Source: Clostridia bacterium (GTDB lineage: Bacteria; Bacillota; Clostridia; Christensenellales; UBA1242). From it: a stretch of 64,000 nt of DNA. The translations under genes and the position numbers were made by a program. The notes beneath the pieces are model-generated. The model saw only the letters and a program-made list of their open reading frames with translations, was not told the DNA's origin and did not search any database. This document shows positions 2,638-52,945 of this stretch, piece by piece (positions within the stretch are counted from its first letter, which is position 1; each line of letters opens with the position of its first letter). The stretch spans positions 2,749 to 66,748 of the forward strand of contig JAZTWI010000007.1 in assembly GCA_045635805.1 (NCBI GenBank). Reading direction: 5' to 3'.

Positions 2638-3591
2638 TTATACCAAGAATCTCATATCTTCTATTTTATCACTCTTTTCTTTTTTCAAAGGAGTAACAAC
2701 ATTGTAGACGTCTACATAATATCTCATGCCTAAACCTTCAAATGTAGTAACCATACCAAAGGCAGAATATAGCAAGAACGATGTAGGAATAGAAACAAGC
2801 AATCCAACACCAAAGGTAAAGAAACCTAGGAATAGATTAAGTGGAATTAAAGTTAAGACAAATCCCACGGAGATAGCCAAAGTTCTTCCATAGTGTTTAA
2901 ATGAAGTCTTCAGAGAAAGGCCAAGTGAACGCCATACACTATAATTCATTGTAACCATTGTCGGTATCCAACAAATAAATAATGTACACTTCAAAGACAA
3001 TAGCAATATTAAAATAAGCATAATTAGGAATGGTGCAAGGAATGAAATCACCCACCAACTAGCATTAAATAATCTAAAACTAAAGATAAATATTGAACCA
3101 ATAAGTAAATCAACAGGAAGAGAAACTAAGTACTGAATAAGCGTTATCTTTAAACTCTTACCGAATGTGTCTTGAAAACTACCAAAGAATCCATAACTAT
3201 TAATACTACCCATATAGTAATTAAGAGAATTACACATAGGAAGAATACTTAAATTATGTAGAATTGCAGTAAAGAAAGCAATTATCAAAGCAAACAAAAC
3301 AAAATTAAACCATATTGAAGAAATATTAGCTGTAAGAATCGCAACTAATTCTATTCCTAATTCCTTAATAGAAAGCAGTAAATTAGTTAGATTTAAGCTG
3401 GTTAAAAACTCAGTATACACTTCTACAACACCTATAGTAAAACCAGAAGAACGCAAAAGATTATATACAGGCATTACTGTCAAATATAATGCTGCTCCTA
3501 GAACTAATGCAACTAATAAGAAATATAACATTGATTTCCAAACAATGTTAAAATTAGAAAGTGCTATTTTTATAGAATTTTTATATTTCAT
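2638..3591 (-). CDS. Polytopic membrane protein, unknown function
   Basis: 317 aa with about 8 hydrophobic helices and no family motif I recognise. Bounded by hairpins on both sides, so it is probably its own transcription unit. Confidence 0.55.
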   Translation of the reverse strand: MKYKNSIKIALSNFNIVWKSMLYFLLVALVLGAALYLTVMPVYNLLRSSGFTIGVVEVYTEFLTSLNLTNLLLSIKELGIELVAILTANISSIWFNFVLFALIIAFFTAILHNLSILPMCNSLNYYMGSINSYGFFGSFQDTFGKSLKITLIQYLVSLPVDLLIGSIFIFSFRLFNASWWVISFLAPFLIMLILILLLSLKCTLFICWIPTMVTMNYSVWRSLGLSLKTSFKHYGRTLAISVGFVLTLIPLNLFLGFFTFGVGLLVSIPTSFLLYSAFGMVTTFEGLGMRYYVDVYNVVTPLKKEKSDKIEDMRFLV

Positions 3592-3665: not shown

Positions 3666-3697
3666 AAAAAATGGCTCATTTTTAAAAAACAAGCCAT
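3666..3697 (-). terminator. Putative terminator closing the phage-like operon
   Basis: Imperfect hairpin ATGGCT..TTTTT/AAAAA..AGCCAT (3671-3697) followed on the minus strand by a T run. It lies 11 nt after the holin stop. Confidence 0.45.
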
Positions 3698-3707
3698 AAA
3701 AACCTTA

Positions 3708-3965
3708 TTATAATTCCCCTATATTTTCATCATCATTTTTTATTATTTCATCTATTAGTATATCTGTATTTTCTTGTTTACCCGACTCTGTTTTCTTAGT
3801 TATAAAACCCACAGCAACCAAAACTACAGCAATAGATGTTATAATATTTTCTATATTTTCCGAAGGAATAGAAAAACCAAAAACCTCAGCAATACTTTCT
3901 AACAGTAGAACAATAGCCCCACTAACACCCAACCAAAACGAAGTTGTCCTTAATTTATTTTTCAT
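3708..3965 (-). CDS. Phage holin (phi LC3-like pattern)
   Basis: 85 aa with a basic N-terminus (MKNKLRTTSFW), two hydrophobic helices (LGVSGAIVLLLESI; ITSIAVVLVAVGFI) and a charged tail. Last gene of the operon; overlaps the upstream gene by 11 nt. Confidence 0.65.
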   Translation of the reverse strand: MKNKLRTTSFWLGVSGAIVLLLESIAEVFGFSIPSENIENIITSIAVVLVAVGFITKKTESGKQENTDILIDEIIKNDDENIGEL

Positions 3966-4197
3966 CTTTACTTACTACCTTAGTCCTTATCTTTTTGTTT
4001 ACAAGCTGCTCTTTTATCATCTCAACATCTAGCTTTACTTCTTTTACTACCTGCAGAGAATCACCCAATTTAGCAATAGTTTCTTGATACTTAGACTCTC
4101 TATTTTTACTATCCCTTAATTGATAAATAAAGAGTCCTAAAAACATTACAGCAAATAAACCATTGCTAATTGCTAGATTAACTATTTGCTCCCACAT
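3955..4197 (-). CDS. BhlA/UviB-family holin-like protein
   Basis: 80 aa. A single N-terminal TM (GLFAVMFLGLFIYQL) is followed by RDSKNRESK and a coiled-coil tail. This matches my recollection of SPbeta BhlA (GPFAVLF..LLFYV..SKERESK). Confidence 0.7.
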   Translation of the reverse strand: MWEQIVNLAISNGLFAVMFLGLFIYQLRDSKNRESKYQETIAKLGDSLQVVKEVKLDVEMIKEQLVNKKIRTKVVSKDEK

Positions 4198-4200
4198 AAC

Positions 4201-5139
4201 CTATCTAACATATTTTTTATAAGCTTCATCATAGTTAACACCTAGAGCATCTTTCAGTCCACTACTTGTAAGTAATTCGATTCTTTTTGACTTATCTTTA
4301 CCTGCCAAATAATTATCAAGAACTGCAAAAACTTGGTTTTTAGTATAATTTGCAAGAGCCTTAGTTCCATATTTAGAAATCAACTCACTCTGTTTAGAAG
4401 CATTGTTAATATTCTTTTCTTTAATATCTGCAACTAATTTATCATAATTCTCTTGATATTCTTTTTCCTTCTTAGCGATTTCGTTATTATACTTAATAAT
4501 CTCACTCTGTTTTTTCTCAAATTCACTAGTTAGCGTATTAATTTTATCATTTAGTTTAACTGCATACGCTATATCAAAGTCACTAATCGCCTGTTTTCTC
4601 TGTGCATCTAATGCATTGATTTCAAAGTCTATAGCATTTAAACTATCTGTATAATCTTTCTCAACTCTATTAATATCATCTATTTCATCTTTAGAAAAAG
4701 CATCTAACACAGAAACTATTATGCTACTCCTAGCAAGACCCCTTCTTAGTGCATCATTACTAGCATTTTCTCTAGCATTATTATAGGCAGAAGAAATACT
4801 ACTTAGGTTAGAAGACTTATTGTCTTTTAGGTCTTCCTTATTTTTTTCAAGCGTATCTCTTTTATTCTCAAAACTCGAGTCAATACTTGAAAGTTCTGTA
4901 TTCCTAAAATCTGCTAAAGAATTCTCTGCTTCACGCTCGATTTCTTCGTTATTTTTAGATGGAACATCTAGTCTAGAAAAATTAGGTTCTTCATAATCAG
5001 GGATTTCAATAAGGCCAAATGAATCATTTATAGCCTTTATTGTATCAACAACACCATCTAATTCACTTTTCTCCTTATCTATATCATAGGCCGAAGCCAC
5101 TTTTTTAGTAATAGCATCATCTACTGAATAATTATTCAT
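4201..5139 (-). CDS. Coiled-coil virion-associated protein, unknown function
   Basis: Start moved to ATG 5139 behind AAAGGAGAA; the track start at 5214 is TTG without an RBS. Highly charged, Asn/Ser/Glu/Lys-rich heptad-like sequence. Sits between the tail-like genes and the holins. Confidence 0.5.
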   Translation of the reverse strand: MNNYSVDDAITKKVASAYDIDKEKSELDGVVDTIKAINDSFGLIEIPDYEEPNFSRLDVPSKNNEEIEREAENSLADFRNTELSSIDSSFENKRDTLEKNKEDLKDNKSSNLSSISSAYNNARENASNDALRRGLARSSIIVSVLDAFSKDEIDDINRVEKDYTDSLNAIDFEINALDAQRKQAISDFDIAYAVKLNDKINTLTSEFEKKQSEIIKYNNEIAKKEKEYQENYDKLVADIKEKNINNASKQSELISKYGTKALANYTKNQVFAVLDNYLAGKDKSKRIELLTSSGLKDALGVNYDEAYKKYVR

Positions 5140-5200
5140 ATTTTCTCCTTTATTCTTAACTCTGCTAAAATTAATTTTACAAACCAATCTCAATATCTCA

Positions 5201-6277
5201 TCATAAGTCTTCAATACTCACAAACCTTTCCATATAATTATATGTTATCATCATAAAATTATCATATATCAAAATACAATCTGCTAGTATAATTCTCTTT
5301 TGTAGTATAGGTACGACCTTAAAATTAATTTTATCTAAACTATATTTTTTTATCATCTGGTCATAATTATCTTTATATACCAAATAAACAAAATTATCTA
5401 TTATGCAAATATCTTGTTTTTTGCTTTTTGTATTCAATATTTCAATAAATCTCGAATTGTTATGGTAATATAAACCTGTGGTGCTATTAAGGTACTCCAC
5501 CATAAACATAGGTAACATATCATTAGAACTAATCGAATGTATATCTTTAACACTCTCACCTGTTTCAATTTCTATAATACTACCCATAGACATATCTTTA
5601 CCAAGTCCCACCATATATAATTTACTATTATTTATAAAGACTACGCCAAGCAAATATTCACTAAAACCAGGTATCAAAATAACCTTTTCATATTCAAAAT
5701 CACACAAATATTGTGTGGTATAATTATCTATATTTGTGCATAAATATAATTTGTCTTTTTTAACCAGTTTTGCAATTTGAATACTTGAACCGTTTTTAAA
5801 CTCAACCAAATCTATCATTTCTATAGTACCCAGATAATCAAATGTTTCTTTTCCATTTGTAAATGTATTGTATCTATATTCCATAAATACCCCACCACAA
5901 TCTTCTAAGTATATGTTCGAATTATATAAGATTTTATCTCGTACCCTACAAGCAAACTCAGCACCATAAATTTGTAATGTCAGATAATCGGCGTCACCTT
6001 CTATTTCTATATAGTCACCTGAAGCAAACTTTAGAGATATTAGAGAACTATATCCCACATCAATACTAAATATAGGCAGACCATTAAAATACATATTTAG
6101 ATTCTCTGCATTACCAATACTTATGTATATGTATCCATATGAGCCAACCAATGACGACTTAATGTAATGCCTAGACAATCCTTTATGAAACCTATACGTA
6201 AGTTTATCAAATCTACCAGACAAGTTGTCTTTTACACAGTTTTTCTTTAATTCATCCTTAATTAAACCCTCTATCAT
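5201..6277 (-). CDS. Phage structural protein candidate (beta-rich, unknown family)
   Basis: 358 aa with an ATGA overlap to the upstream gene. No recognisable motif; assignment rests on position only. Confidence 0.4.
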   Translation of the reverse strand: MIEGLIKDELKKNCVKDNLSGRFDKLTYRFHKGLSRHYIKSSLVGSYGYIYISIGNAENLNMYFNGLPIFSIDVGYSSLISLKFASGDYIEIEGDADYLTLQIYGAEFACRVRDKILYNSNIYLEDCGGVFMEYRYNTFTNGKETFDYLGTIEMIDLVEFKNGSSIQIAKLVKKDKLYLCTNIDNYTTQYLCDFEYEKVILIPGFSEYLLGVVFINNSKLYMVGLGKDMSMGSIIEIETGESVKDIHSISSNDMLPMFMVEYLNSTTGLYYHNNSRFIEILNTKSKKQDICIIDNFVYLVYKDNYDQMIKKYSLDKINFKVVPILQKRIILADCILIYDNFMMITYNYMERFVSIEDL

Positions 6278-7767
6278 AAAACACCTACCTTCACTTGAAC
6301 ATTAGCAATTCTAGTATTAGTTGTTTTAGATAGAAAACTCACTGCAATTTTAGTTCCCTTTAGTCTTGGTTTTATTACAGAAATACCATCTTTACCCTTA
6401 ACACTAAAATCTTTAGTTTTACCATCTACACTAATTCTAACTATACAATCTTTATCTGTTTCTAAATAAATTTCTTTGATAAGTTTCTGCCTGTCTGGAT
6501 AGTTGTAATCACTCTCTGCAGTGAGCCATACTTTTTCCGTGACTTCATCAAATATCATACCAGAATTATCAATAAGACCTAGTTTATAATTTTCACCCAT
6601 CTTTACAGAAACAAGTACAAAACTTGACTTTGTATCATTGATTACAGAGATATCTCTAATATCAACACCCCTAAGAATTGTTAGTTTCTTTGAATTAACA
6701 TCAAATCTAACAAGCGCATTATTATCCAAATCTCCTATCGTCTCATTATCTGGGTCATCATCAAAATTTAGTCTACACGCTAGATAATAACAACCATTAC
6801 AGAAACCAGCAATAGCAGAATGGTTATTATCATCAAAGATATTATTAATTCCTAGACTAATTCTAGTCGAAGATGAACCATTAAAAGAGTACAATCCATC
6901 TGTCGCTAAATACATTATTTTATTTCCACACACAACAACGGTATCTTTTATAATCCTACCACTACCAACATATAATTGACTTACAGAGAAGTTCTCTTGC
7001 TCAGCGTAAGCAGTAATTCTAGCAATATTATAATCTCTAAATACATATAGATATCCTTCAAAAGAAACAACTTTATTCGACCTACCAAAATCATCAACCA
7101 AGTCAATAAAACCACCTTCGTCTAGACTAGTAGAAAAATTAGTTGGATTTAAATCATCACTAAACCAGACCCTTCGCTCATTTTCTACCGATGTAACAAA
7201 TAGCCTTTCATTATGTATACACATACTACTTATACAAGGTACATTTTCTATCTTATTGGCCACTCCACCTTCAACCCAGGTATACATACCTGTTGATTTA
7301 GAAAAAACAAGAAGGGTATCTACACCATTTAAATTGTAACTAGTAACGATTGGTTTGGCATCTGTAGAAGTAAGCCCTTCTATTTCCTTCCAGCCTGTAT
7401 CTGGATAATGAAGATTATTATAATAAAATTTATTATTATAACTATATATAATAATGATAGGATTATATACCTTTGCCGTTATATGCCATGTCTGAAATAA
7501 CCAAGAAGCCCTAACCATTATATGATTAGGAACATCCAATAACTTCTTATACTCGGGACTAATATTTGAATACTTAACATAAGGAAGAGATATACCCAAT
7601 CCATCCTTTAGAGCACCATCTGAGTAATCATAATTATAAGACAGTCTAGTATATCCACTAGGTAGCACCGACTCGTCATATATGGTATTAACACCCTTCA
7701 TAAATGATGAGTAATTAATATACTTATAGGTAATATTTTTCAAATTAAGAAAGTTCGTATAGAACAT
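6274..7767 (-). CDS. Putative tail hub / particle-stabilisation-like protein
   Basis: 497 aa, beta-rich with repeated strand-turn patterns. Its size and its third position after the capsid gene parallel gp10-type hub proteins of P22-like podoviruses. This is positional inference, not a sequence match. Confidence 0.4.
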   Translation of the reverse strand: MFYTNFLNLKNITYKYINYSSFMKGVNTIYDESVLPSGYTRLSYNYDYSDGALKDGLGISLPYVKYSNISPEYKKLLDVPNHIMVRASWLFQTWHITAKVYNPIIIIYSYNNKFYYNNLHYPDTGWKEIEGLTSTDAKPIVTSYNLNGVDTLLVFSKSTGMYTWVEGGVANKIENVPCISSMCIHNERLFVTSVENERRVWFSDDLNPTNFSTSLDEGGFIDLVDDFGRSNKVVSFEGYLYVFRDYNIARITAYAEQENFSVSQLYVGSGRIIKDTVVVCGNKIMYLATDGLYSFNGSSSTRISLGINNIFDDNNHSAIAGFCNGCYYLACRLNFDDDPDNETIGDLDNNALVRFDVNSKKLTILRGVDIRDISVINDTKSSFVLVSVKMGENYKLGLIDNSGMIFDEVTEKVWLTAESDYNYPDRQKLIKEIYLETDKDCIVRISVDGKTKDFSVKGKDGISVIKPRLKGTKIAVSFLSKTTNTRIANVQVKVGVL

Positions 7768-7768
7768 T

Positions 7769-8326
7769 TTACCACCACCTTCTCTTTGGCATTATTATAT
7801 TTTTAGAAGGTCTTTGTATAGATAACATACTTGCTTTAAATCTCTTGTCCCACACATATGCATCATCTATCTGCCCTTTTAGAAATAAATATTCAGCAGC
7901 AACAGCATACCCAAATAACAATTCATTTAATTTTCCAAAATAATCAATACTATCATTAAGCGTAACCATGTCTGGAAAATATGAATACAAGATTTCACAC
8001 TCACCACTTGTTAACTCCATAGAATCATTATGAACCCTAAAATCAACTCTCTCACCATTCCTTGTTACTTTCTTTATTTGTATAATAGCTCTACTTGTTA
8101 TACTTGAAAACTTAATATTATCATCTTTAATAGTTGCCTTATACTTATCATAAACCGGTAAATAATTAGCAGCAATATTACCTATAGCCATATTCGTAGC
8201 TACAATTAAATTATCTAATTCCTGCATGTCATCACTCCCCACACTTTCACCACTAAAATATGGTGTAAGTCCATTTAATCCAAGCAGACCAACCACTATC
8301 TTTAATACATTTTTTACACCAATCAT
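7769..8326 (-). CDS. Putative head-tail adaptor/connector
   Basis: Start ATG 8326 lies 5 nt after GGAGG (8332-8336); the track start at 8338 is GTG. 185 aa; assignment by position after the capsid gene. Confidence 0.4.
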   Translation of the reverse strand: MIGVKNVLKIVVGLLGLNGLTPYFSGESVGSDDMQELDNLIVATNMAIGNIAANYLPVYDKYKATIKDDNIKFSSITSRAIIQIKKVTRNGERVDFRVHNDSMELTSGECEILYSYFPDMVTLNDSIDYFGKLNELLFGYAVAAEYLFLKGQIDDAYVWDKRFKASMLSIQRPSKNIIMPKRRWW

Positions 8327-8328
8327 CT

Positions 8329-8706
8329 CTACCTCCACACACTAGAAAATGCTTTATTTAAATCATACTCTTTACTTGAATTATTAGAAAAATCAAAAAT
8401 TTCTTTCGCCATATACGTAGTTAAATCAAGAGTCTCATCTTTGCTTTCTTTCTCCACTTTACTATTCATATTGTCAATATCGTTTATAATATTGTCAATA
8501 TATCTAATATTGGAATAAAAAATATCATCTATTAATTTCGATGAAATTTCATTATTTTTTATGTTAAAACAAAAAGTATTTCTTTGATTTGTATTATGCA
8601 ATTCTAATAATCCCGTCTTTAAATTAAGCATAATCTTATACCCATCATCTATTTCTTTTATTCTATTTACAATATCAAACACATCACTCTCTATCTCTAT
8701 TTTCAT
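8329..8706 (-). CDS. Small acidic phage protein, unknown function
   Basis: 125 aa, first gene after the capsid-gene hairpin. No recognisable motif. Confidence 0.4.
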   Translation of the reverse strand: MKIEIESDVFDIVNRIKEIDDGYKIMLNLKTGLLELHNTNQRNTFCFNIKNNEISSKLIDDIFYSNIRYIDNIINDIDNMNSKVEKESKDETLDLTTYMAKEIFDFSNNSSKEYDLNKAFSSVWR

Positions 8707-8722
8707 ATCATTTTTCCTATTT

Positions 8723-8755
8723 AAAAAAATTACTAGGGGTATACTCTACCCCTAG
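8723..8755 (-). terminator. Strong hairpin + T run directly after the major capsid gene (terminator/attenuator)
   Basis: Minus strand CTAGGGGTA-GAGTA-TACCCCTAG (9-bp stem, 8733-8755) followed by TAATTTTTTT. It is the only sizeable gap inside the operon. Confidence 0.65.
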
Positions 8756-8783
8756 CATAATACTGAGATTAATTTACTTTAAA

Positions 8784-9956
8784 TTACGCACCAATAATAC
8801 CTGTTAGTTTAGCTTGACTATTTGGTCTATTACATAGAAGTTCTGCGTATTTAACAAGAGTAGCAGTATATACAGGATAACCTTCTTTCTGTCTAATTAC
8901 TTTACCCTCATTATCTTCTAACCATTGCCAATCACATAATTGACATAGCTCAAAGTCTTTAGTATTTAGTAGATACATTGTATCATCAGCCACAAATCTA
9001 TCAGCAACAACAGGAATACCATTAAATGATAGAGCCTTAAATCCGCCCTGAAGATTCATAACATCAATATTTCTTCTATATGTACTTAGTTCTTCCTGGT
9101 ATGCCCTTCTAACAGCAGAAGAACAAGCAATGAAGTCAATCTCTCCACCGGTCACTTCTTCTATCTCATCAATAACTGTCTGCATAACAGTTTCACTTAG
9201 AGCACCAATCTCATCTTTTACTTTTGATTTTAACCATACATTACTAGTTCTATTGATACCGTATAATTCTCCCTTATTTGAGAATATTTTTTCAAGACCT
9301 GTAATTTCATTGTTATAACCATTGATAGTTGTTAGTTTCATATTATTCATAGTAGCATCTAGAGTTCTATCGAATTGAATATACTTTAGAGTTCTCTCAA
9401 TATTCTTAACAATTAATGGCTCGTTTTGTAGATAAGCACCACTATTATTTACAACCTTACAAGCAAGGCCTTCCATAACGTTTTTAACATTGTCTACATA
9501 AGCACCATATGCACCCATAATATTTTCTTCGCCTACAGTAGTAGCAAGAACACCACTACCATCGCCATACAACATTCTACCTAAATTAAATGTACTTGAT
9601 TTAATCAAACTCTCCATTTCTTCATTAAGTAAGTTTACAAATGCACCAGCACTATTTTGAGACGCTCTGATTGCCTTATCTGTAATTTCAATTGTTCCAT
9701 ATAAATTTTTAAGTGTTAATACAAATTGAGCATAACCTTTATTGTATGCACCAGGAAGAGCACCATCTTCTGAACCAGCACTCACACCACCAGAAAGACC
9801 AAATGAAGTAGCCTTTCTAATTTCGTTGCCATATACATTATTTGTTGTTTGTTTAATTTTTGTTAGTAATGGATTTGCACCAACATTTAATTGGTTTCCA
9901 ATTACTCCTAAGTAAATTGACTTTAGAGCATTATCTGCAGTTGTTAATGTAATCAT
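8784..9956 (-). CDS. Phage major capsid protein
   Basis: 390 aa directly after the scaffold gene, with an AGGAGAAA RBS. The segment IEITDKAIRASQNSAGAFVNLLNEEMESLIKSSTFNLGRMLYGDGSGVLA follows the conserved pattern seen in tailed-phage major capsid families. Confidence 0.75.
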   Translation of the reverse strand: MITLTTADNALKSIYLGVIGNQLNVGANPLLTKIKQTTNNVYGNEIRKATSFGLSGGVSAGSEDGALPGAYNKGYAQFVLTLKNLYGTIEITDKAIRASQNSAGAFVNLLNEEMESLIKSSTFNLGRMLYGDGSGVLATTVGEENIMGAYGAYVDNVKNVMEGLACKVVNNSGAYLQNEPLIVKNIERTLKYIQFDRTLDATMNNMKLTTINGYNNEITGLEKIFSNKGELYGINRTSNVWLKSKVKDEIGALSETVMQTVIDEIEEVTGGEIDFIACSSAVRRAYQEELSTYRRNIDVMNLQGGFKALSFNGIPVVADRFVADDTMYLLNTKDFELCQLCDWQWLEDNEGKVIRQKEGYPVYTATLVKYAELLCNRPNSQAKLTGIIGA

Positions 9957-9968
9957 CTTATGTTTCTC

Positions 9969-10622
9969 CTAAAACCTGAACATATTCTCCACATACTTTT
10001 TAGCTTCTTCTAGTGTATTAATTTTACCAGAACCCACAACATTTCTATCGTATCCAGCATTAGACACCGTTATAGGACTCTGTGCCTTTTGTAGTGAAGC
10101 AACATATTCTTTTATTATTTTTTCTTTTATTTCTTCATTATTGTAAATATGATTTTCCAGAAAATTCTGGTCACTTGCTAAGTCTTTTGGCAGAACATAA
10201 TTTTTATCTAAAACTTTTAAGTATGCCTTTTCTAATCCATCTTCTGCATTCTTAAGTTTCTCATCACCGATTAATTCTTTAGTTATTTCTTCTGCAAATG
10301 TATTAGCAAATTTGTGAGTTTGTAAAAACTCTTTTAAATTTTTATTCCAGGCAAATTCTTCTGTATCAGTTGTAGATAAAGTTCCGGACTCTTCATCTTT
10401 ATTTGTTTCATACAGTTGTTTCTCTACTTCACTTAGTTTCTGACACTTGCGAGTAAACTCACTCTGTAACTCGTTATAAGCATCTAACAGTTTTTCGGGA
10501 TTTTTAAATTTACCTAGTGGAGAGCCATCTAGTTGACCCACTTCTTTTTCCACTCCTGTCGCTACAGCATAAGCGTCAACTTGAGAAGGTTGTTCTCCAA
10601 TAATTTTATTTTCTACACTCAT
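9969..10622 (-). CDS. Phage scaffolding protein (GP20-like)
   Basis: 217 aa, acidic and helical. The motif GKFKNPEKLLDAYNELQSEFTRK is typical of Firmicute-phage scaffolding proteins. Lies between portal and capsid. Confidence 0.7.
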   Translation of the reverse strand: MSVENKIIGEQPSQVDAYAVATGVEKEVGQLDGSPLGKFKNPEKLLDAYNELQSEFTRKCQKLSEVEKQLYETNKDEESGTLSTTDTEEFAWNKNLKEFLQTHKFANTFAEEITKELIGDEKLKNAEDGLEKAYLKVLDKNYVLPKDLASDQNFLENHIYNNEEIKEKIIKEYVASLQKAQSPITVSNAGYDRNVVGSGKINTLEEAKKYVENMFRF

Positions 10623-10624
10623 AT

Positions 10625-12505
10625 TTATTCTCCATTATTTATTTCTTTCATTATATTTAAAAATTTTTTATGACTTCTAATATGTCCTAACACTATGTCT
10701 TCTACCTTAGGATTTTTTGCATACGCTTTCTCATAATCACTACTTAACATAAACGCAGTATGCTCACTAATATGTAAATTATGGTCATCTATTTCTTTTG
10801 CATTTAAAGTTTTAACATTTGTAATCATTGCAATATTCTCTTTTGATGCACTATTAATTTGAAGTGAACTAATGTCTCTACTAGTCTCCCATACACCAAA
10901 GCCTAATTGTTCAAGTATCTTAGACCTCATAGAGTTACTTAGTTTTCCGTTTTCATCAACTAAAAGCCCTGCTCTTAACATATCAAATATCATACTTCTT
11001 TTCTGGGCAAGAGTTTCATTAATTTCACTTTCAGTCTCAAATACAATTTCTTCACTATTAATATCGGAGCCCTTCCAATAGAATAATTCAATAGCTCCAC
11101 CTTCACCAATAATCCTAGCAGTATGCTCAATTACAGCAAATTGTTTGTATAATCTTAGAATATGTTTAGCGATTTCTTTAGCAGCATTTTTAATCTCTTC
11201 AGCACTAGATAGTAGCTTGATATCATCTTGCTCGATAAGTAATTGCAGAGCAATACCACTAGCATTAGTACCCGAGAAACCCCTACTATTCATAAGGTCA
11301 CTTACACCAGAAATATTTGTAAATTCATTAAGTAGAGAATTCTCTTCATATTGAAAATCAATAGGCACAGAGCCTGTTGATAGTAGTTTCGGCCCACTAG
11401 AACCCTGTCTATAGATAAGGACCTTCCCAGGAGAAAGCCCTTCTTCTTCTAAGTTCTCTATATCTACAGAGCCATCTTCTACCGATAATATTCCCATTGT
11501 TAATCTATTTAAGAATTCGTGCTTTCTATTCTTAATGGCATTATATGACCTTTGAATAGGAATACATCTCTCTATAACACTGCTTCCCCAGAAACAATTA
11601 GGCGACACAATACACGATTGTTTAATAAAAGGAAAACCCCTTTTACCATCTGCTTTATTAATATATGGCAAATCACCCATAAATAAGAGATGCTCACCAG
11701 CAATGATAGTAAGCCTTCCATTTGGATACTCAATTGTTGGTTTTTCATATTTCTCTAGGACCAATACCTGGTCTTTTTTTAGTTTCTTTGCAACTGCAGT
11801 AGATAGTGATGTATAACCAAGCCCTCCTGCCATAGATAGATTATCTAGAGTATAAACATTAATATCTTCACCGTCACAATCAACACCCCAAATATTTTTC
11901 ACCATATCCTTATGAAATGTTCTGGCATAAATAATAGACATACAGTCATCGACATTATTATAAGTATTACTATCAGGATAAATTTCAAAGGGACTAACTA
12001 CAGATAAAGATATATCTCCTTCTCTTATAATATTACCAGTCTCATCTTTGCCAATAACCCTGCCACCAGAATTATCCCAATCAATCTTATAAAATGCAGT
12101 TCCACAAATCTCACTCCACATAGTACCTTGTGAAATAACTTTGCTAATATTCTTACTATGACTAACAGCCTTTAATATTTTCTTACTAGTCTTTGCACAA
12201 GCAACATCTGCTTCATCATCAGAAAATGGTATCACAGTAAGTGCAGGTCTAACTCTTGAGAGCTTAGACTGTCTAATCTCAATAATATTTGCTATATGAT
12301 TATAAACTTCTCTTTCTTGCCAAAAATATTGTTTACTAGACTCCATAATATCTCCATTAGGAGAGATATAACAATATTGATTACCAACAAAGAAATTAAT
12401 ATTTAATTGCCATAGTGCTTCAAAAGATTTTCTCTCAAGTTGCCTTTTGTGGAAATCTTCCAAAACACCATCTACTATTTCTTTTTCTTCTGTTAATTTA
12501 TCCAT
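10625..12505 (-). CDS. Phage portal protein
   Basis: 626 aa between the terminase and scaffold genes. N-terminal WQLNINFFVGNQY motif is like portal families. The large size is typical of short-tailed phage portals. Confidence 0.8.
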   Translation of the reverse strand: MDKLTEEKEIVDGVLEDFHKRQLERKSFEALWQLNINFFVGNQYCYISPNGDIMESSKQYFWQEREVYNHIANIIEIRQSKLSRVRPALTVIPFSDDEADVACAKTSKKILKAVSHSKNISKVISQGTMWSEICGTAFYKIDWDNSGGRVIGKDETGNIIREGDISLSVVSPFEIYPDSNTYNNVDDCMSIIYARTFHKDMVKNIWGVDCDGEDINVYTLDNLSMAGGLGYTSLSTAVAKKLKKDQVLVLEKYEKPTIEYPNGRLTIIAGEHLLFMGDLPYINKADGKRGFPFIKQSCIVSPNCFWGSSVIERCIPIQRSYNAIKNRKHEFLNRLTMGILSVEDGSVDIENLEEEGLSPGKVLIYRQGSSGPKLLSTGSVPIDFQYEENSLLNEFTNISGVSDLMNSRGFSGTNASGIALQLLIEQDDIKLLSSAEEIKNAAKEIAKHILRLYKQFAVIEHTARIIGEGGAIELFYWKGSDINSEEIVFETESEINETLAQKRSMIFDMLRAGLLVDENGKLSNSMRSKILEQLGFGVWETSRDISSLQINSASKENIAMITNVKTLNAKEIDDHNLHISEHTAFMLSSDYEKAYAKNPKVEDIVLGHIRSHKKFLNIMKEINNGE

Positions 12506-12725
12506 CTTTCTTTACTCCAGATTTTGATTTTTTATTAAACACATTTACAGGACTTTTAGGAACAATTCTTTTTGCTAGTTCACTATATAGTTCCTTCATA
12601 CAATCTTCACAAATGTATAATCCAATGGACTTAATAAACCCATCTTTCTTAATCTTTGCGGTTGCTAAATTTTTACAATTAGGCATCTCACACCTAATCC
12701 TTCTATTAATATTTTCTATTCTCAT
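12498..12725 (-). CDS. Small 4-Cys zinc-ribbon protein with basic tail
   Basis: 75 aa with CEMPNC...CEDC and a Lys-rich C-terminus. ATGA-type coupling on both sides. Confidence 0.5.
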   Translation of the reverse strand: MRIENINRRIRCEMPNCKNLATAKIKKDGFIKSIGLYICEDCMKELYSELAKRIVPKSPVNVFNKKSKSGVKKDG

Positions 12726-12991
12726 TTTATATCCTTTAATAATTCTAAAAGTTTTTTCTTTTCTTTATTTAATTCTTCATCAGTCAAAGACGATAAATCC
12801 CCATCTTCTCTATTCTCTAGTAACATTTGTAATGCCGACAAATCTGGTGGATATGTCTTTGTACTTGTTTTTCTTTTCTGTAATACTAATTCATCTCCAG
12901 ATAGTCCATACTCTTCTATTACTTCTTTTGTTTCATATCCAAGTGCTTTATCTAGGAGTGCTTTTTCTATTTTCTTATTGTTCACTTTCAT
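12722..12991 (-). CDS. Small-terminase-like fragment (no HTH)
   Basis: 89 aa. ALGYETKEVIEEYG...KRKTSTKTYPPDLSALQMLLENRED resembles the central GY..EE...K..PPD..A...L.NR segment of Firmicute-phage small terminases (recalled from memory). It lacks the usual N-terminal HTH and lies downstream of terL. Confidence 0.4.
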   Translation of the reverse strand: MKVNNKKIEKALLDKALGYETKEVIEEYGLSGDELVLQKRKTSTKTYPPDLSALQMLLENREDGDLSSLTDEELNKEKKKLLELLKDIK

Positions 12992-13033
12992 AATGTTTTA
13001 CAAAAAACAACCACAATACTTTATTGTAGTTGT

Positions 13034-14479
13034 TTATACACCATATCCCCAATTTCCTAATTTTAGTTTTCTTATTAATCGTTCTTTATCTTTAGCAATA
13101 ATTGATTTAAGTACTTTCTCCTGTTTTTGTCTATTCTCTGGTCTACTCATAATATAGTATCTCAGTTCATCTAGAGCATGGTCATCTCTCTTGACCGGAG
13201 CATCATTATTACCCCAATAGTAACCTTTTATTTCTCTTATTAGATTTACACAATTTTTAAAAATAAATAATTTTCTCTCTCCACTCGCATTTCTAAAGTA
13301 AGACTTTACTCTGTTAATACCAGAAAAAAGGTCTTTGTTTACATAAGGATTTGTTGATATTCCATTTTCATAAAATAACTCAGTAACACTTTTTGTTCCA
13401 GATAAAGTTCTCTGGTTAGCAGCACTATCTATTATTGCTTCATATTTACCGTTACGCTTAGGCCATTCTAGAGCCTTACAAATCTCTTTTATTTTATTGC
13501 TATGCTCTTCTATCGTTTTTTCTTTTTCATAATGCTCTGCAATAACATAAATATTTCCATCAAAATCACAAGCATACCAGTGAGTACTGAGTGGATTTTT
13601 AAGTCCAGGGTCAATAGATATTTTATCATACCAACTCTTAGGCACATCGAAGGGTTCTATCACATTTTCTGTAATATCAAACTCACTATAAACCATACCT
13701 GTTCCACTCATAAAGTTACCATATTTTCTGCTATTCAATTCTTCTTCACTCATTACTTGCGATAGTTTCTTTATTTCATTTTTATTAAGGTACGGATTAT
13801 CTTCCCAGTTCATTTGCTCATACCAAATATCTTCATCTTGTGCTTCGTTTAGGTATATTTTCTCATAGACCCAAGTAAGACCCTTCAAAGGAGTCATCGT
13901 TCCGTAAACTTCACCATTTTTATCTAAAACTCTCATTTTACACTCTATATAAATATCTTCTGGTGGTTCTTCATCAAACCACACATAATCTAGCGAAGTT
14001 CCCTGGAATTTTTCTCTGCCTTGGTCACAACTTTTAAACCCTATCTTACTAATGCTACCAAAAACATTTTTAATATAAATTGTATCTATAACACCCTGAT
14101 TTGCACTAGACTTTTTACCAGAAATCATTGTTATTTCTTCTATCCACTCTGGTTTTAAGTAACTCAGTATCTTGCTTTGAGCGACATCTCTCTGCACCTG
14201 TTGACTAAGTGAAACCACCCAACCATCTCTAGGTTTATTTTCCTTATATGGATGAATACCCCTAGCATACCATACTGTCTCTACAGCACCACATTCCGTT
14301 TTACCACTTCTATTACCACCGAATACCCATCTGTTTTTCTTAGTACATTTATGAAAATTAACTTGCTTATGATGAACAGGCTCTTCTCTATTGTACCTAT
14401 CTATTTTCCCATACTTCTGTCGCCGTTTCTCTTCATATAATATCTTATTAAGCCTTTCAATAATTTCTTGTTTTGTCAT
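13034..14479 (-). CDS. terL: Phage terminase large subunit
   Basis: 481 aa with Walker A GGNRSGKTECG, Walker B LDYVWFDEE, and nuclease-domain motifs IDSAANQR and DDHALDELRYY. AAGGGGA RBS. Confidence 0.9.
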   Translation of the reverse strand: MTKQEIIERLNKILYEEKRRQKYGKIDRYNREEPVHHKQVNFHKCTKKNRWVFGGNRSGKTECGAVETVWYARGIHPYKENKPRDGWVVSLSQQVQRDVAQSKILSYLKPEWIEEITMISGKKSSANQGVIDTIYIKNVFGSISKIGFKSCDQGREKFQGTSLDYVWFDEEPPEDIYIECKMRVLDKNGEVYGTMTPLKGLTWVYEKIYLNEAQDEDIWYEQMNWEDNPYLNKNEIKKLSQVMSEEELNSRKYGNFMSGTGMVYSEFDITENVIEPFDVPKSWYDKISIDPGLKNPLSTHWYACDFDGNIYVIAEHYEKEKTIEEHSNKIKEICKALEWPKRNGKYEAIIDSAANQRTLSGTKSVTELFYENGISTNPYVNKDLFSGINRVKSYFRNASGERKLFIFKNCVNLIREIKGYYWGNNDAPVKRDDHALDELRYYIMSRPENRQKQEKVLKSIIAKDKERLIRKLKLGNWGYGV

Positions 14480-14529
14480 TTTATCCCCTTTTTCAATATA
14501 TTATCTAATAAATACTCAAGTAAGTGATT

Positions 14530-14557
14530 TTGAATTAAATACAATATTGTCTATCAT
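14530..14557 (+). promoter_or_regulatory. Candidate sigma-A promoter giving a leaderless mRNA for the 245-aa SH3b gene
   Basis: TTGAAT (14530-14535), 16-nt spacer, TATCAT (14552-14557). The ATG at 14564 follows only 6 nt later and has no Shine-Dalgarno. Confidence 0.35.
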
Positions 14558-14563
14558 CTAAAT

Positions 14564-15301
14564 ATGAAAAAATTAATCACGATTATTTTAATAATATTTT
14601 ATTTTACAACACCTACCAACTACCTACTAGTTAGAGCAAATTCTACAAAGTACGCTAGAGCATTAAATGGTAATGTTAATCTGTATCGATTGTCTGTAGA
14701 TGATAATAATATAGAAAATGTACTTTGCTTGATAGAAAAAACCTACTTTGTCGAGATTGTGAGCGATAATGTTGACTGTTACAAAGTAAATTACAATGGA
14801 ATAAGTGGATACATTAAAAAGAATGATGTAGTAATGGTTCAGAACGAACCAACTACACCATTCCCTGTAAATATTAAAATGACTATTGCTAGTAATTGCA
14901 ATCTGCGTAGCTCTCCCACAACTCATCCAAGCACAAATAATATCATTTCTACTATATATTCAGGAGAAACGAATTTAACTTTCATAGGCAGAATATTTGC
15001 AGAAGAAGCCATCGACTTTGGTGGCACCACTTGGTACTATGTCTCCTTTGATGGTCAAAGGGGTTATATCTATAATAAATACATTAAGTCAATAACACCC
15101 ATTTATCCAAATACCGAAGAAACACTAATTCACACAAATAATAACTATACTCAAGTGAGCCCACTTAACGACACTAATAGTATTATCATAATTATACTAC
15201 TCTTTATACCATGTATTGGAATACTAATTTTACTCTACTTACCTAGAAAAACTAGTACTAGGCAAAATGATAAAAAGTCACGATATATAGACAGATATTA
15301 A
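14564..15301 (+). CDS. Secreted, C-terminally membrane-anchored protein with two SH3b-like domains
   Basis: Signal peptide MKKLITIILIIFYFTT..VRANS. Two SH3b-type modules (..YKVNYNGISGYIKKNDV; ..WYYVSFDGQRGYIYNKYI). C-terminal TM IIIIILLFIPCIGILILLYL plus a basic tail. Confidence 0.65.
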   Translation: MKKLITIILIIFYFTTPTNYLLVRANSTKYARALNGNVNLYRLSVDDNNIENVLCLIEKTYFVEIVSDNVDCYKVNYNGISGYIKKNDVVMVQNEPTTPFPVNIKMTIASNCNLRSSPTTHPSTNNIISTIYSGETNLTFIGRIFAEEAIDFGGTTWYYVSFDGQRGYIYNKYIKSITPIYPNTEETLIHTNNNYTQVSPLNDTNSIIIIILLFIPCIGILILLYLPRKTSTRQNDKKSRYIDRY

Positions 15302-15853
15302 TTAAATATACGTATTACAAAATGTATGAATCTTACCAACATCACTAAGCATATTTTTAACAAATACACCCTCTAAAACTTTCTCTTCTTCATTAGATTC
15401 TCCCAGTACTTCGTTGTAGATTACATCAAACCAAGCCTCACCTAAGTATTCTTCATCAAAGAAGTCTTTTCCATAGCCAAGACTTGTTAGTTTATCACTA
15501 AATTCAATTAATGCCTTCATCTTTTGTCTAAAGAAGGTCCTTAGACTAATGCCAAGCAACTGTGAAATAAGAGATGCTGTAATTCCGTCTATATAAAAAA
15601 GTGTTAGCAGTCTACGACTATCTCTAGATATCCCTGCCAACCCTTCTTCTATTATAACTTTTAAATTAACAAGTTTTCTTTTTCTGTCTATTAAACTTAT
15701 CATCCTCCCTGTTTGAATATTTGTTGTTTGAAATTTTGTTATATCTCTAGTATAACTTGATTTTCCCGTGTCCAGCACTAACTTATCAATACTATTAGAC
15801 ATTGTCTCTAGGTATCTATAAATAGAGAGCGCTGACTTGCTCCAGTATTTCAT
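15302..15853 (-). CDS. Sigma-70 region-4-type transcriptional regulator (phage late-gene activator-like)
   Basis: 183 aa. RRLLTLFYIDGITASLISQLLGISLRTFFRQKMKALIEF is a region-4 HTH. The N-terminal ALSIYRYLETMSNSIDKLV..DRKRKLVNLKVIIEEGL pattern resembles small phage sigma-like activators of Clostridia. Lies upstream of the terminase. Confidence 0.6.
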   Translation of the reverse strand: MKYWSKSALSIYRYLETMSNSIDKLVLDTGKSSYTRDITKFQTTNIQTGRMISLIDRKRKLVNLKVIIEEGLAGISRDSRRLLTLFYIDGITASLISQLLGISLRTFFRQKMKALIEFSDKLTSLGYGKDFFDEEYLGEAWFDVIYNEVLGESNEEEKVLEGVFVKNMLSDVGKIHTFCNTYI

Positions 15854-15882
15854 AAATTCCTCCTTTTAAGAAATGCACCTAT

Positions 15883-15912
15883 AGTATAATGTATGAAAAA
15901 GAGCAAAGTCAA
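15883..15912 (-). promoter_or_regulatory. Sigma-A-type promoter of the late-regulator gene
   Basis: Minus strand TTGACT (15907-15912), 18 nt, TATACT (15883-15888), then ATAGGTGCATTT, AAAAGGAGG and ATG. Confidence 0.55.
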
Positions 15913-15928
15913 AACATTGTGTCATTTT

Positions 15929-16062
15929 TTGTAAAATTTTTTTATAAATTGTAAAAATTTGTAAAAATTAATTACTTAAGTAATTAATAAATTTTAAAAA
16001 ATTTTATTAAATTACTAACTTTTATCTACATTTTAAATATATTCAAAGTAAATATATTCAAA
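15929..16062. repeat. Cluster of short repeats and a 20-nt perfect palindrome in the divergent control region
   Basis: TTGTAAAA(A) at 15929, 15949 and 15959, with GTAAAAATT again at 16091. TTAATTACTTAAGTAATTAA is a perfect palindrome at 15968-15987. TAAATATATTCAAA is directly repeated at 16034 and 16049. Confidence 0.45.
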
Positions 16063-16078
16063 TAAAGTATTAAATTCA

Positions 16079-16107
16079 TTGTCAAAATAAGTAAAAATTG
16101 CTAAAAT
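16079..16107 (+). promoter_or_regulatory. Candidate sigma-A promoter of the 849-aa gene
   Basis: TTGTCA (16079-16084), 17 nt, TAAAAT (16102-16107), then AAAGGAG RBS and ATG 16133. Confidence 0.45.
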
Positions 16108-16132
16108 TTAAACATACACAAAGGAGTAAAAA

Positions 16133-19325: not shown

Positions 19326-20003
19326 CTATCTAACATAGTAATTTTCCAACACTCCCATAGACGTGAGCACCGTATCAACGTCTAAATCTTCCTTAATAAT
19401 CTCTACACGACTTAAACTTACTTCATATGCAGTCTTTACAACAATATCATCACCAATCTTCTTTTGATACTCACGACTCTGTATTCTACCAGATACCGAA
19501 ACCTTGTCACCTATAGCAAAATTTTTCACAAATCTAGCATTTCTCCCCCAAGCAATACAAGGCAAATAATCACTCTTATTATAACTTCTATTTACTGCAA
19601 GTAACACATCTGCAATTTCTCTTTTAAAAGGCGTTGTTCTAAATACAGGTTCTTTACAAACAAACCCAACAATCTCAATACTATTAGGATTATCACTTGC
19701 GCTATAAGGGCATAATTCTCTCAAAAAAACCGTGAGCATTAGTTTACTCTTGCCATCTTCTAATTTATTATAACTTCTAAATTGCCCACTACCAGCTATT
19801 TTACTACCTATGCTAATCTCATTATCTAGTAGCAGTCTCTCACTAATTGTTACAGGAATAATATCATATATATCAGAAAGCCTTGATACTTTAAGTTTTA
19901 AATCAAAAAACTTCTCTCCATATGTCTCATGACTAAACTCTAGTTCACTGACAACTTCTCCTGCAATATTTACCCTATTATTTTTTAGCAAATTGTAATC
20001 CAT
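19326..20003 (-). CDS. Tandem OB-fold single-stranded-DNA-binding-like protein
   Basis: Two SSB-like OB modules. The first runs NRVNIAGEVVSELEFSHE..GSKIAGSGQFRSYN..KSKLMLTVF; the second runs IEIVGFVCKEPVFRTT..LPCIAWGRNARFV..GDKVSVSGRIQSREYQ..AYEVS. No acidic DDD(I/L)PF-type C-terminal tip. Confidence 0.55.
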   Translation of the reverse strand: MDYNLLKNNRVNIAGEVVSELEFSHETYGEKFFDLKLKVSRLSDIYDIIPVTISERLLLDNEISIGSKIAGSGQFRSYNKLEDGKSKLMLTVFLRELCPYSASDNPNSIEIVGFVCKEPVFRTTPFKREIADVLLAVNRSYNKSDYLPCIAWGRNARFVKNFAIGDKVSVSGRIQSREYQKKIGDDIVVKTAYEVSLSRVEIIKEDLDVDTVLTSMGVLENYYVR

Positions 20004-48293: not shown

Positions 48294-48376
48294 AATATAA
48301 CCCCCATTAGTAATATTGCTTTTAGTGTATATCAATATTTAATAATTGACAAACAAATGATAGCAATAAAAATAAA

Positions 48377-52456: not shown

Positions 52457-52945
52457 TTAACTATTTTTCTTTGTTATTTTATTTGCTGTTGTAGCCTGTG
52501 TTGTCTTCTTAGAACTTGTAGCCTTCTTAGTCTCAGTAGGCTTAGATTCTTCCTTTTGAGTATCTTCCTTATCCTTTGTTTCTTCTACTTCGATTACCAC
52601 TTCAGCCTGTTGTTCTTTTGCTTTTTTCTTTTCTTCCCTTATTCTCTTGTAACTATCTTCTAGTATTTGATTTTTTCTCTTTCTCATCTCTTCTCTTGCT
52701 TTCTGTTTAGCAGCGAGTTTAGCGTCTTTCTTTTCAAAGATTTTCTTTGCTATATGATTACCTATAGCCACAAATACAAGTAAGATTATACAGTCTAGTA
52801 GCACAATTAGCCATCTAATATTAATGTAAGTGTATGCAAAGACATTAAAGAGAACCAATGGTATAAATGAAATTAGGAATATAATGCCATATTTAGCAAA
52901 GCCCCTTTTCATATCTCTCTTATCGAAAAAATATCTACTTCTCAT
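52457..52945 (-). CDS. Two-TM membrane protein with Lys/Glu-rich tail
   Basis: 162 aa upstream of and co-oriented with dnaB. No recognisable motif. Confidence 0.45.
   Translation of the reverse strand: MRSRYFFDKRDMKRGFAKYGIIFLISFIPLVLFNVFAYTYINIRWLIVLLDCIILLVFVAIGNHIAKKIFEKKDAKLAAKQKAREEMRKRKNQILEDSYKRIREEKKKAKEQQAEVVIEVEETKDKEDTQKEESKPTETKKATSSKKTTQATTANKITKKNS

Follow-up and report, generated by a model that had tools for sequence, protein, structure and literature searches.

A candidate gene transfer agent-like particle module of podovirus origin in the chromosome of gut Clostridia

Gene content of the module

The DNA analyzed here is a window of 64,000 nucleotides (nt) from the contig JAZTWI010000007.1 of a Clostridia bacterium, and all coordinates are positions of this window. 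Between 3708 and 15853, in a low-GC chromosome (~31%), the window carries a cluster of phage-like head, packaging and tail genes, which is designated as the module. An earlier note, written from the sequence alone, had proposed that this cluster is a domesticated, podovirus-type element similar to a gene transfer agent (GTA). This proposal is upheld by the conserved locus of the module, the purifying selection acting on it and the lack of adjoining autonomy genes.

All 14 minus-strand open reading frames (ORFs), tightly packed in virion order, were recovered at the positions that had been described for them, and internal stops were found in none of the 14. The gaps and overlaps between the genes also agree with the earlier description. 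Among the gaps, the larger ones follow terL (42 nt) and the capsid gene (77 nt, with a terminator-like hairpin inside). The gene list of the earlier note was right for these 14 genes, and it lacked one plus-strand gene (14564-15301). The genes are as follows, with lengths in amino acids (aa).

16133..18682, plus strand: 849-aa surface protein with a signal peptide, NHL repeats, an SH3-like region and a C-terminal membrane anchor (Pfam NHL, sequence)
15302..15853, minus strand: 183-aa sigma-region-4-like activator, candidate late-gene regulator
14564..15301, plus strand: 245-aa membrane-anchored SH3 protein, between the regulator and terL (Pfam SH3_3)
13034..14479, minus strand: large terminase TerL, ATPase and nuclease (Terminase_6N/6C; PHROG 2, E 1e-30)
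12722..12991, minus strand: 89-aa small-terminase (TerS)-like protein (PHROG 309 TerS, E 3e-7)
12498..12725, minus strand: 75-aa Zn-ribbon protein, CxxxxC...CxxC (sequence)
10625..12505, minus strand: portal of the P22/SU10 type (Pfam P22_portal, E 6e-15; PHROG 156)
9969..10622, minus strand: 217-aa scaffold-slot protein (position and profile match)
8784..9956, minus strand: major capsid protein (NCBIfam capsid_maj_Podo, NF033394, E 7e-79; PHROG 14242, E 4e-55)
8329..8706, minus strand: 125-aa head-associated protein
7769..8338, minus strand: 189-aa (or 185-aa) candidate portal-nozzle adaptor (directly upstream of the nozzle gene)
6274..7767, minus strand: 497-aa tail nozzle, beta-propeller (AlphaFold2 (AF2) and Foldseek)
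5201..6277, minus strand: 358-aa beta-rich accessory protein
4201..5214, minus strand: DUF7934 coiled-coil protein, 337 aa from a TTG start or 312 aa from an ATG (Pfam DUF7934, E 5e-44)
3955..4197, minus strand: BhlA-family holin (Pfam Holin_BhlA, E 2e-14)
3708..3965, minus strand: second holin, Phage_holin_1 type (Pfam, E 2e-4; PHROG 297, E 1e-9)

Relatives of the module were collected by a capsid-based scan of one genome per species, and homologues of the other genes were then identified by tblastn and iterated profiles on ORFs. In total, 57 loci were found, all of them from gut metagenome-assembled genomes (MAGs) labelled Clostridia, Clostridiales or Christensenella, with capsid identities of 42-80%. 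The clade of the window is designated as clade A.

The capsid protein is 25-30% identical to those of Microbacterium and Arthrobacter podophages. The PHROG 309 match of the TerS-like protein, which is present in 52 loci, covers only profile positions 195-246 of 319. The Zn-ribbon protein was found in 34 loci, and its profile also matches small genes in the terL-portal intergenic slot of true-phage relatives. The 217-aa protein, present in 55 loci, matched no Pfam, NCBIfam or PHROG family. It had been called a GP20-like scaffold; the GP20 assignment is not supported by Pfam or PHROGs, while the scaffold slot is supported by the position of the gene and by a profile match to the gene that directly precedes the capsid gene in the phage relative L065 (E 2e-8). 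The profile of the 125-aa protein matches the post-capsid gene of the true phages L066 (E 1.5e-26) and L065 (E 1.2e-17), and also that of a minimal lineage, L063, described below.

The 189-aa protein is probably the adaptor. It was found in 53 loci, and its profile matches a 176-aa protein of L065 that bears a faint Pfam SU10_adaptor signal; against T7 gp11, Shocker gp32 and PDB sequences, the profile showed no significant match. The 497-aa protein, found in 50 loci, was modelled with AF2 from a 63-sequence alignment (predicted local distance difference test score, pLDDT, 86; predicted template modelling score, pTM, 0.87). Foldseek aligned the model best with the nozzle of Pa223 (E 3e-21, template modelling (TM) score 0.75), followed by VP1, PhiM1, GP4, SU10, P22 gp10 and T7 gp12. 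The nozzle profile also matches gp33 of the Microbacterium phage Shocker (E 3e-8), whose gene follows the Shocker gene annotated as "tail tube protein". By its predicted structure, the 497-aa protein is a podovirus tail nozzle, which fits the podovirus-like "portal-plus-hub" arrangement that the earlier note had assumed. PDB sequence searches with the capsid protein, the portal, the nozzle and the adaptor, DUF7934 and capsid profiles gave nothing informative; only the fold search with the nozzle model was successful.

The 358-aa protein is restricted to six clade-A loci and absent elsewhere. It is fast evolving, with a ratio of nonsynonymous to synonymous substitution rates (dN/dS) of 0.4-0.54 and 35% identity where its neighbours show 63-74%, and it is possibly a distal or receptor-binding part. 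It was not called as a receptor-binding protein: there are four homologues, the AF2 model has a pLDDT of 72, and Foldseek against PDB and BFVD returned generic propellers with TM scores <0.4. For DUF7934, which is present in 40 loci, comparison with PDB, PHROG and phage sequences returned nothing informative, and neither DUF7934 nor the nozzle matched any of 50,697 phage records in tblastn. The second holin is confined to clade A. PADLOC recognized no defence system among the unassigned or neighbouring proteins. Taken together, the head, portal, adaptor and nozzle predicted from sequence and structural models make the particle podovirus-type.

The regulator is present in 47 loci (dN/dS ~0.13-0.2) and matches Sigma70_r4_2 (E 7e-4), DUF1492 (E 2e-3) and the transcription regulators of PHROG 36/248 (E 1e-7), and NCBIfam sigma-70 models match it weakly. 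The 245-aa SH3 gene keeps its position and orientation in 48 loci (dN/dS ~0.13). The gene for the 849-aa surface protein is divergent from the regulator gene and accompanies the module in all clades; in at least 28 loci, including loci with other outer flanks, a homologue or analogue of it is found upstream of the regulator.

Conservation of the module and its regulatory DNA among relatives

The gene order is kept among the relatives: the large NHL/SH3 surface protein (opposite strand), the regulator, the SH3 membrane protein (opposite strand), terL, terS, (Zn-ribbon), portal, scaffold, capsid, (125-aa protein), adaptor, nozzle, (variable gene), DUF7934 and (holins), where the genes in parentheses are not constant. 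The module measures 12-15 kb across these loci. The earlier note had suggested looking for the same module at the rnj locus of related genomes, and it is linked to rnj in many of them: rnj adjoins the module in 26 loci, and a gene for a protein similar to single-stranded DNA-binding protein (SSB) does so in 24. In some clades the flanking genes are different (parE/parC; ispG/nusA; dut/trmB), with the surface protein, regulator and SH3 gene still attached. Host genes stand on both sides of the module here and in ~50 genomes, in which the contigs reach 1.1 Mb.

A distant lineage with 36% capsid identity (L063) has a minimal 8-kb module beside rnj, which consists of TerL, an 81-aa protein, portal, scaffold, capsid, proteins of 106 aa and 175 aa, nozzle and a BhlA holin. 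At capsid identities of 32-33%, the contexts turn into those of true phages, such as a contig of 57.7 kb that is rich in small genes and has tail genes. IMG/VR contains only three close contigs, all of which are host fragments. In metagenomes, the relatives of the module comprise more than 6,000 capsid protein clusters.

Three side observations concern these relatives. The TerL profile scores at E 1e-250 in the chromosomal lineage (L063/L064, even in the minimal module) and at 1e-15 to 1e-20 in the nearest true phages, L065 and L066, whose portal and capsid score at 1e-96 to 1e-174; this contrast suggests either a terminase swap or a strong lineage-specific constraint. "Candidatus Fimimonas" is filed under Myxococcota by NCBI (taxid 2840648), and the locus L010 is titled "Corallococcus sp."; L010 and L015 have a Clostridia-type module flanked by rnj, in L010 also by the SSB-like gene, and their taxonomy labels look wrong. 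The loci L047 and L048, on two contigs of the MAG RGIG4556, have identical 21-kb module regions, owing either to contig duplication or to a genuine second copy.

The module is vertically inherited under purifying selection. Across 26 genomes, the pairwise identities of module proteins follow those of rnj, with Pearson correlations of 0.94 for TerL, 0.95 for the portal and 0.82 for the capsid; within clades, the correlation is 0.63-0.82. Against the deep clade, where rnj is 45-47% identical, TerL is 58-64%, the capsid 52-56% and the portal 46-50% identical. The GC content of the module follows that of rnj (r 0.995) over a range of 27-58% GC, and the GC content at third codon positions does the same (r 0.989).

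In comparison with the three closest species, the synonymous divergence (dS) is saturated (>1), and every ORF is open. The dN/dS of the core genes between species is 0.03-0.25: 0.03-0.04 for TerL, 0.04-0.07 for the portal, 0.10-0.14 for the capsid, 0.08-0.14 for the nozzle and 0.11-0.19 for DUF7934. Within one related species, eight independent metagenome contigs, obtained through look-ups of two abundant capsid clusters, gave an unsaturated synonymous polymorphism (pS) of 0.014-0.038. The corresponding ratio of nonsynonymous to synonymous polymorphism (pN/pS) is 0.04 for the portal, 0.02 for the adaptor, 0.115 for the nozzle, 0.12 for the scaffold and 0.21 for the 124-aa protein. The purifying selection that the earlier note had put forward as a check was therefore observed both between and within species. 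Among 51 TerL sequences, 177 residues reach a conservation of 95% or more, and these include the Walker A and B motifs, the coupling motif TMTP and the Asp/His residues of the nuclease. All six core genes are intact in 40 of the 44 loci that hold all six.

Library searches of the 64 kb revealed no integrase, repressor or replication gene, and the remainder is housekeeping, with nothing phage-like outside the module. No tRNA and no Rfam family were detected in the 64 kb, and the flanks of the module contain no att-like direct repeat, only imperfect pairs at chance level. Families of sheath, tube, baseplate and tape measure are missing from both the module and the window. The absences listed in the earlier note, which also included fibre and endolysin genes, thus hold for the 64 kb, and no autonomy genes lie next to the module here or in relatives, for which flanks of 10 kb were covered.

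The regulatory DNA includes the following features.

15968..15987, no strand: 20-bp palindrome TTAATTACTTAAGTAATTAA, candidate operator upstream of the regulator promoter (unique in the window)
15883..15912, minus strand: promoter-like site TTGACT-N18-TATACT for the regulator gene (consensus scan, 10/12 matches)
8731..8757, minus strand: terminator-like hairpin directly after the capsid gene (11-bp stem, then a T run)
3671..3697, minus strand: terminator-like hairpin closing the structural operon (12-bp stem, then a T run, 10 nt past the holin stop)

The palindrome recurs as TTAATTACT-N2/3-AGTAATTAA (AATTACT arm) in 11/11 clade-A relatives despite saturated synonymous sites, and a block GACAyAAaGTTTTGACTT...TATACTATAG is nearly invariant in this clade. 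The sigma-70 scan gave 75 sites in comparison with 82.6 in shuffled sequences, and the sites reported here are those backed by conservation across species. Outside clade A, a GAAC-N4-GTTC box, typically AGAACAAACGTTCGA, adjoins the regulator gene in 29 of 36 loci, where ~1 is expected by chance, just downstream of an extended -10 element; in the remaining 7 loci, the box is within 560 bp. This sequence is the Cheo/LexA box of Bacillota. Its position implies that the activator would be under SOS control in the other clades, with a regulatory swap in the clade of the window.

Each of 17 clade-B loci has a single copy of a 16-nt motif, TTTGCC[GA]AGTT[AG]TGT, in the interval from the SH3 gene to terL; no further copy occurs in 1.07 Mb, and the window has none. 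It is a candidate late promoter, and genome-wide occurrences of TTTGCCGAGTTRTGT in clade B could point to the regulon. The hairpin after the capsid gene may be an attenuator that raises the capsid:tail transcript ratio, by analogy with T7 Tphi. Upstream of the regulator in clade B (e.g., L024, ~4200-4280), an inverted repeat TGACA-N6-TGTCA is followed by an extended -10 element (TGCTATAAT) and the LexA box, and a degenerate TGACA repeat (TGACAyAAAGTTTTGAC) persists in the clade of the window at ~15905-15925. Another block conserved in clade A, TTAAATTTTAGCAATTTTTAC...TTTTGACAATGAA, lies at 16040-16132, upstream of the gene for the 849-aa surface protein, and is probably its promoter.

Interpretation and comparison with known systems

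The region is interpreted as the core of a chromosomally fixed, podovirus-derived, GTA-like particle module (a "viriform"), with a probability of roughly 0.65. Domestication as such is close to certain, and the production of DNA-filled particles is likely. Like a GTA, the module is a chromosomal, phage-derived cluster of head, packaging and tail genes without genes for replication, integration or immunity, and it shows host-linked vertical inheritance, a conserved position and purifying selection. The module would be a further member of the GTAs rather than a new kind; a podovirus-like GTA is already known from Faecalibacterium prausnitzii (FpGTA). The earlier note had regarded a short-tailed GTA as unusual. 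The podovirus type holds, and the claim of unusualness is weaker after the publication of FpGTA in January 2026 (PMC12946183).

The origin and working of the module can be pictured as follows. A short-tailed phage with a P22/SU10-type portal, a "capsid_maj_Podo" capsid protein and a beta-propeller nozzle would have given its head, packaging and proximal-tail genes to the ancestor of a large group of Christensenellales-like gut Clostridia. Its replication, integration and immunity genes would have been lost, and the remainder inherited vertically under purifying selection. The sigma-region-4-like activator (15302-15853) would be silenced by a repressor that binds an operator within its promoter, namely the LexA/Cheo box in most lineages and probably the 20-bp palindrome (15968-15987) in the clade of the window. 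Upon induction, the activator would turn on the operon from terL to the holins. Procapsids would be built by the scaffold, the capsid protein and the portal, and be filled by a headful mechanism by TerL and its 89-aa TerS-like partner, host DNA being the most likely cargo. The portal would be closed by the 125-aa protein, the 189-aa adaptor and the 497-aa nozzle, and DUF7934, together with the 358-aa protein in the clade of the window, would supply distal or internal parts. BhlA and the second holin would then permeabilize the membrane, and particles would leave from a fraction of the cells.

Several points weigh against this interpretation. The element is known here from its genes, and every relative is a MAG. 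The 64 kb contain no endolysin, fibre or recognizable receptor-binding protein. The likeness of the regulator to sigma factors and late activators is under curated thresholds. In clade A, the LexA box was not found at the regulator promoter. Four loci have split genes: L009 and L055 are affected in the capsid gene, L010 and L044 in the nozzle gene. Co-divergence with the host, taken alone, is also expected of host-restricted phages, and such an origin is argued against because the locus is fixed and has no integrase. As a separate observation, the portal and scaffold of L050 are read as one fused ORF; the split and fused genes may reflect decay or MAG sequencing error.

The earlier note had offered a very recently truncated prophage as its alternative. 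Such a cryptic remnant under neutral drift would explain why integrase, repressor, replication, fibre and lysin genes are missing and why a few relatives have split genes. The same locus is, however, kept across genomes whose rnj genes are only 45-47% identical, the ORFs are intact at dS >1 with dN/dS far below 1 and a within-species pN/pS of 0.02-0.21, the GC content is fully ameliorated, and regulatory DNA motifs are conserved. Intact ORFs, low dN/dS, co-divergence and matched GC form a pattern that a decaying prophage cannot give, and the hallmarks of an integrated prophage (integrase, att sites, repressor, replication module, strain-variable presence, foreign composition or neutral substitution) were not found. 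This alternative is refuted by the comparative data and retains hardly any probability. A capsid-forming satellite, similar to the capsid-forming phage-inducible chromosomal islands (cf-PICIs), or another mobile element that borrows fibres and replication from a helper phage, would agree with an own capsid, portal and terminase without fibres or lysin, and with the PICI-like size of 12-15 kb. It is very improbable in view of the module's own adaptor and nozzle, its fixed vertical position and host-tracking composition, and the lack of an integrase, att site, repressor/antirepressor and primase-replicase module; the three close IMG/VR contigs are also host fragments. That the module is a part of an active phage, with its other genes elsewhere or just outside the region, is the least credible explanation. 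Apart from the intactness of the genes, nothing speaks for it, and the host genes on both sides here and in ~50 genomes speak against it, as do the true phages, which are found only from ~33% capsid identity downwards and look quite different.

More serious is the explanation that the particle is domesticated for a role other than gene transfer, whether it is filled with DNA or empty. Such roles could be killing or competition (as proposed for PBSX of Bacillus subtilis), programmed lysis with release of extracellular DNA, a phage decoy or protein delivery. All the evidence for domestication fits this explanation equally well. No receptor-binding protein or fibre was recognized in the window, the holins stand in cis without an endolysin, and the authors of the FpGTA study leave DNA delivery by their own particles undecided (PMC12946183). 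Nevertheless, TerL, with its nuclease and ATPase motifs, and the portal are the most constrained of the module genes, which argues that DNA packaging is central. The podovirus-type adaptor and nozzle, a conduit for DNA ejection, are also conserved, and no contractile or pore-forming killing apparatus is present. A non-transfer role is considered unlikely, though it deserves more weight than any other rival, and the GTA-like module remains the preferred explanation.

FpGTA is the closest known system in its general design. It was described by Borodovich et al. (Nat Commun 2026, PMC12946183), the sole relevant paper from full-text searches. FpGTA consists of a 10.5-kb operon and a second 5.5-kb locus, and its ~40-nm capsids hold ~9 kb (8.5-9 kb) of host DNA (PMC12946183). 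Proteomics of the particles identified the portal, capsid, a "TolA" protein, TerL and the tail nozzle (PMC12946183). Like the module, FpGTA is a podovirus-like chromosomal operon in gut Clostridia without replication or integration genes; it spans ~10 kb and is near-ubiquitous in its host group. The order of the FpGTA genes by accession (RCH50852 to RCH50844) is TerL, portal, scaffold slot, capsid, two small genes, nozzle, one gene and the coiled-coil "TolA" protein. As judged from the accession numbers and the functions in the proteomics table, this order matches terL ... nozzle, the 358-aa protein and DUF7934 of the module, and DUF7934 occupies the slot of RCH50844.

The two systems differ in their components. 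The FpGTA capsid (RCH50849) is labelled "N4-gp56 family", whereas the module capsid matches only NF033394 capsid_maj_Podo among NCBIfam models (E up to 0.01), and the module capsid profile has no similarity to N4 gp56 (hhalign probability 0.5%). The scaffold slot of FpGTA encodes a Prp-like protein, to which the 217-aa protein of the module is unrelated. The fibre, receptor-binding, holin and endolysin genes of FpGTA lie in its second locus, while the module has two holins in cis and, unlike FpGTA, an attached regulator and two SH3 surface proteins. FpGTA particles and their DNA have been shown, whereas the module is known from genes alone. Because the capsid families appear to differ and the scaffold-slot proteins are unrelated, the two are probably analogous products of independent domestications, set apart by the NCBI family labels and the N4 gp56 comparison. 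The length of 89 aa was considered as a sign that the TerS-like protein lost its DNA-recognition domain, as in RcGTA and FpGTA, and this candidate was dropped; T7 TerS is also 89 aa.

RcGTA-type elements resemble the module in being phage-derived, vertically inherited clusters of ~15 kb under purifying selection. RcGTA is controlled by host regulators, has accessory genes at other loci and packages host DNA shorter than its own cluster. It differs in being siphovirus-like, with a tail tube, a tape measure and unrelated proteins, and in its control via CckA-ChpT-CtrA/GafA in place of a LexA-boxed sigma-like activator. In PBSX, the late operon is driven by the sigma-like factor Xpf. PBSX derives from a defective phage of Bacillota and is SOS-induced, and its Xpf logic resembles the LexA box upstream of a sigma-r4-like activator. 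It is, however, myovirus-like and species-restricted, with a contractile tail and a ~28-kb cluster, and is regarded as a killing particle without DNA injection; the sheath, tube, baseplate and tape measure of PBSX-like elements and tailocins are absent from the module. PBSX packages ~13 kb of host DNA (Fig. S1 legend). cf-PICIs are also small chromosomal elements with their own capsid, portal and terminase and no full virion, but they have an integrase, att sites, a repressor and a replication module, are mobile and use helper-phage tails; the module has none of these and has an adaptor and nozzle.

The closest cultured phages are the Microbacterium phage Shocker and the Arthrobacter phages Jasmine, Brad and Adat. 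Their TerL, portal and capsid are homologous to those of the module (22-30% identity in tblastn; profile E 2e-56, 5e-68 and 3e-50, respectively; nozzle E 3e-8), and they share the order terL, two small genes, portal, scaffold and capsid. They differ in being autonomous, with 45-kb Actinobacteria-phage genomes that encode a DNA polymerase, primase/helicase, endolysins and a 5.2-kb virion gene.

GTAs were long known almost only from Alphaproteobacteria, and FpGTA in 2026 placed an operating short-tailed GTA in a dominant genus of the human gut. In human faecal viromes, the same study reported GTA-like packaging of DNA of Christensenellaceae MAGs, in pieces of ~4.1 and 6.3 kb, and did not find the genes responsible (PMC12946183). 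For these packaging genes, the present cassette is a concrete candidate. The look-ups of the two abundant capsid clusters returned ENA and Logan sample codes and no NCBI assembly accession to compare with the packaging MAGs GCA_900761075 (HGM11616 sp900761075) and GCA_019420265 (QANA01 sp019420265). As a tentative and wider proposal, the module may be a second podovirus-type GTA of gut Clostridia, domesticated independently of FpGTA according to the capsid-family evidence and shared by a large part of Christensenellales. It would then be the cluster behind the 4-6 kb Christensenellaceae particles, with an SOS/LexA trigger rewired to another repressor in one clade and with the SH3 surface proteins as parts of the system, e.g., as a cognate receptor, a kin-recognition or a wall-lysis factor.

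The breadth and age of the module are indicated by 57 species-level genomes and by the one locus that was kept while the host GC content moved from 27% to 58%. If the independent origin is true, the domestication of a podovirus head for DNA export would be a solution that recurs among gut Clostridia. The Christensenellales belong to the most heritable and health-associated gut taxa, and a built-in device for DNA exchange would bear on their evolution. As direct handles for experiments, the element offers its LexA box, conserved promoters and catalytic motifs.

Boundaries and neighbouring genes

The earlier note had named rnj and topoisomerase genes as the flanks of the module. Both are present, while the immediate neighbours are the 849-aa surface protein and a 317-aa membrane protein.

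2638..3591, minus strand: 317-aa multi-pass membrane protein between the module and rnj (own terminator at 2634-2614)

The 317-aa protein was found in 29 loci and has no family match in the libraries or PADLOC; its belonging to the module is uncertain. On the other side, beyond the regulator, the 849-aa NHL/SH3 protein is followed by DUF3592, the SSB-like protein, a deacetylase and then the topoisomerase genes. The element should be better bounded at ~3671-18682, which adds the control region of the regulator and probably the two SH3 surface proteins.

These two surface proteins (14564-15301 and 16133-18682) are encoded on the opposite strand, in or beside the module in every clade, whatever the outer flanks. 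Both have a signal peptide, SH3 domains and a C-terminal anchor, and only the larger has NHL repeats. In clade B, the SH3 profile also matches the C-terminal part of the large surface protein. The SSB-like protein (19326-20003, minus strand) is 225 aa long, with two OB-like halves and no acidic C-terminal tail, and matches PHROG 26861 over its full length. Its gene adjoins the module in three clades (24 loci), and a link to the DNA handling of the element is conceivable.

The housekeeping genes of the window include rnj, parC/parE-like genes, murG, ddl, tsaB/E, obg, alaS, dnaB, clpC and ctsR. Four ORFs of 310-514 aa, all on the minus strand, have no significant family (42222-43766, 47277-48335, 49763-50743 and 52935-53867). 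They are not phage-like by Pfam and PHROGs, with a single marginal PHROG match of unassigned function for 47277-48335 (E 5.5e-4). The parC-like ORF (20937-23999, minus strand) begins with TTG and encodes 1020 aa, with the topoisomerase domain from residue 241. It overlaps the parE-like gene by 32 nt, and its start is probably over-extended.

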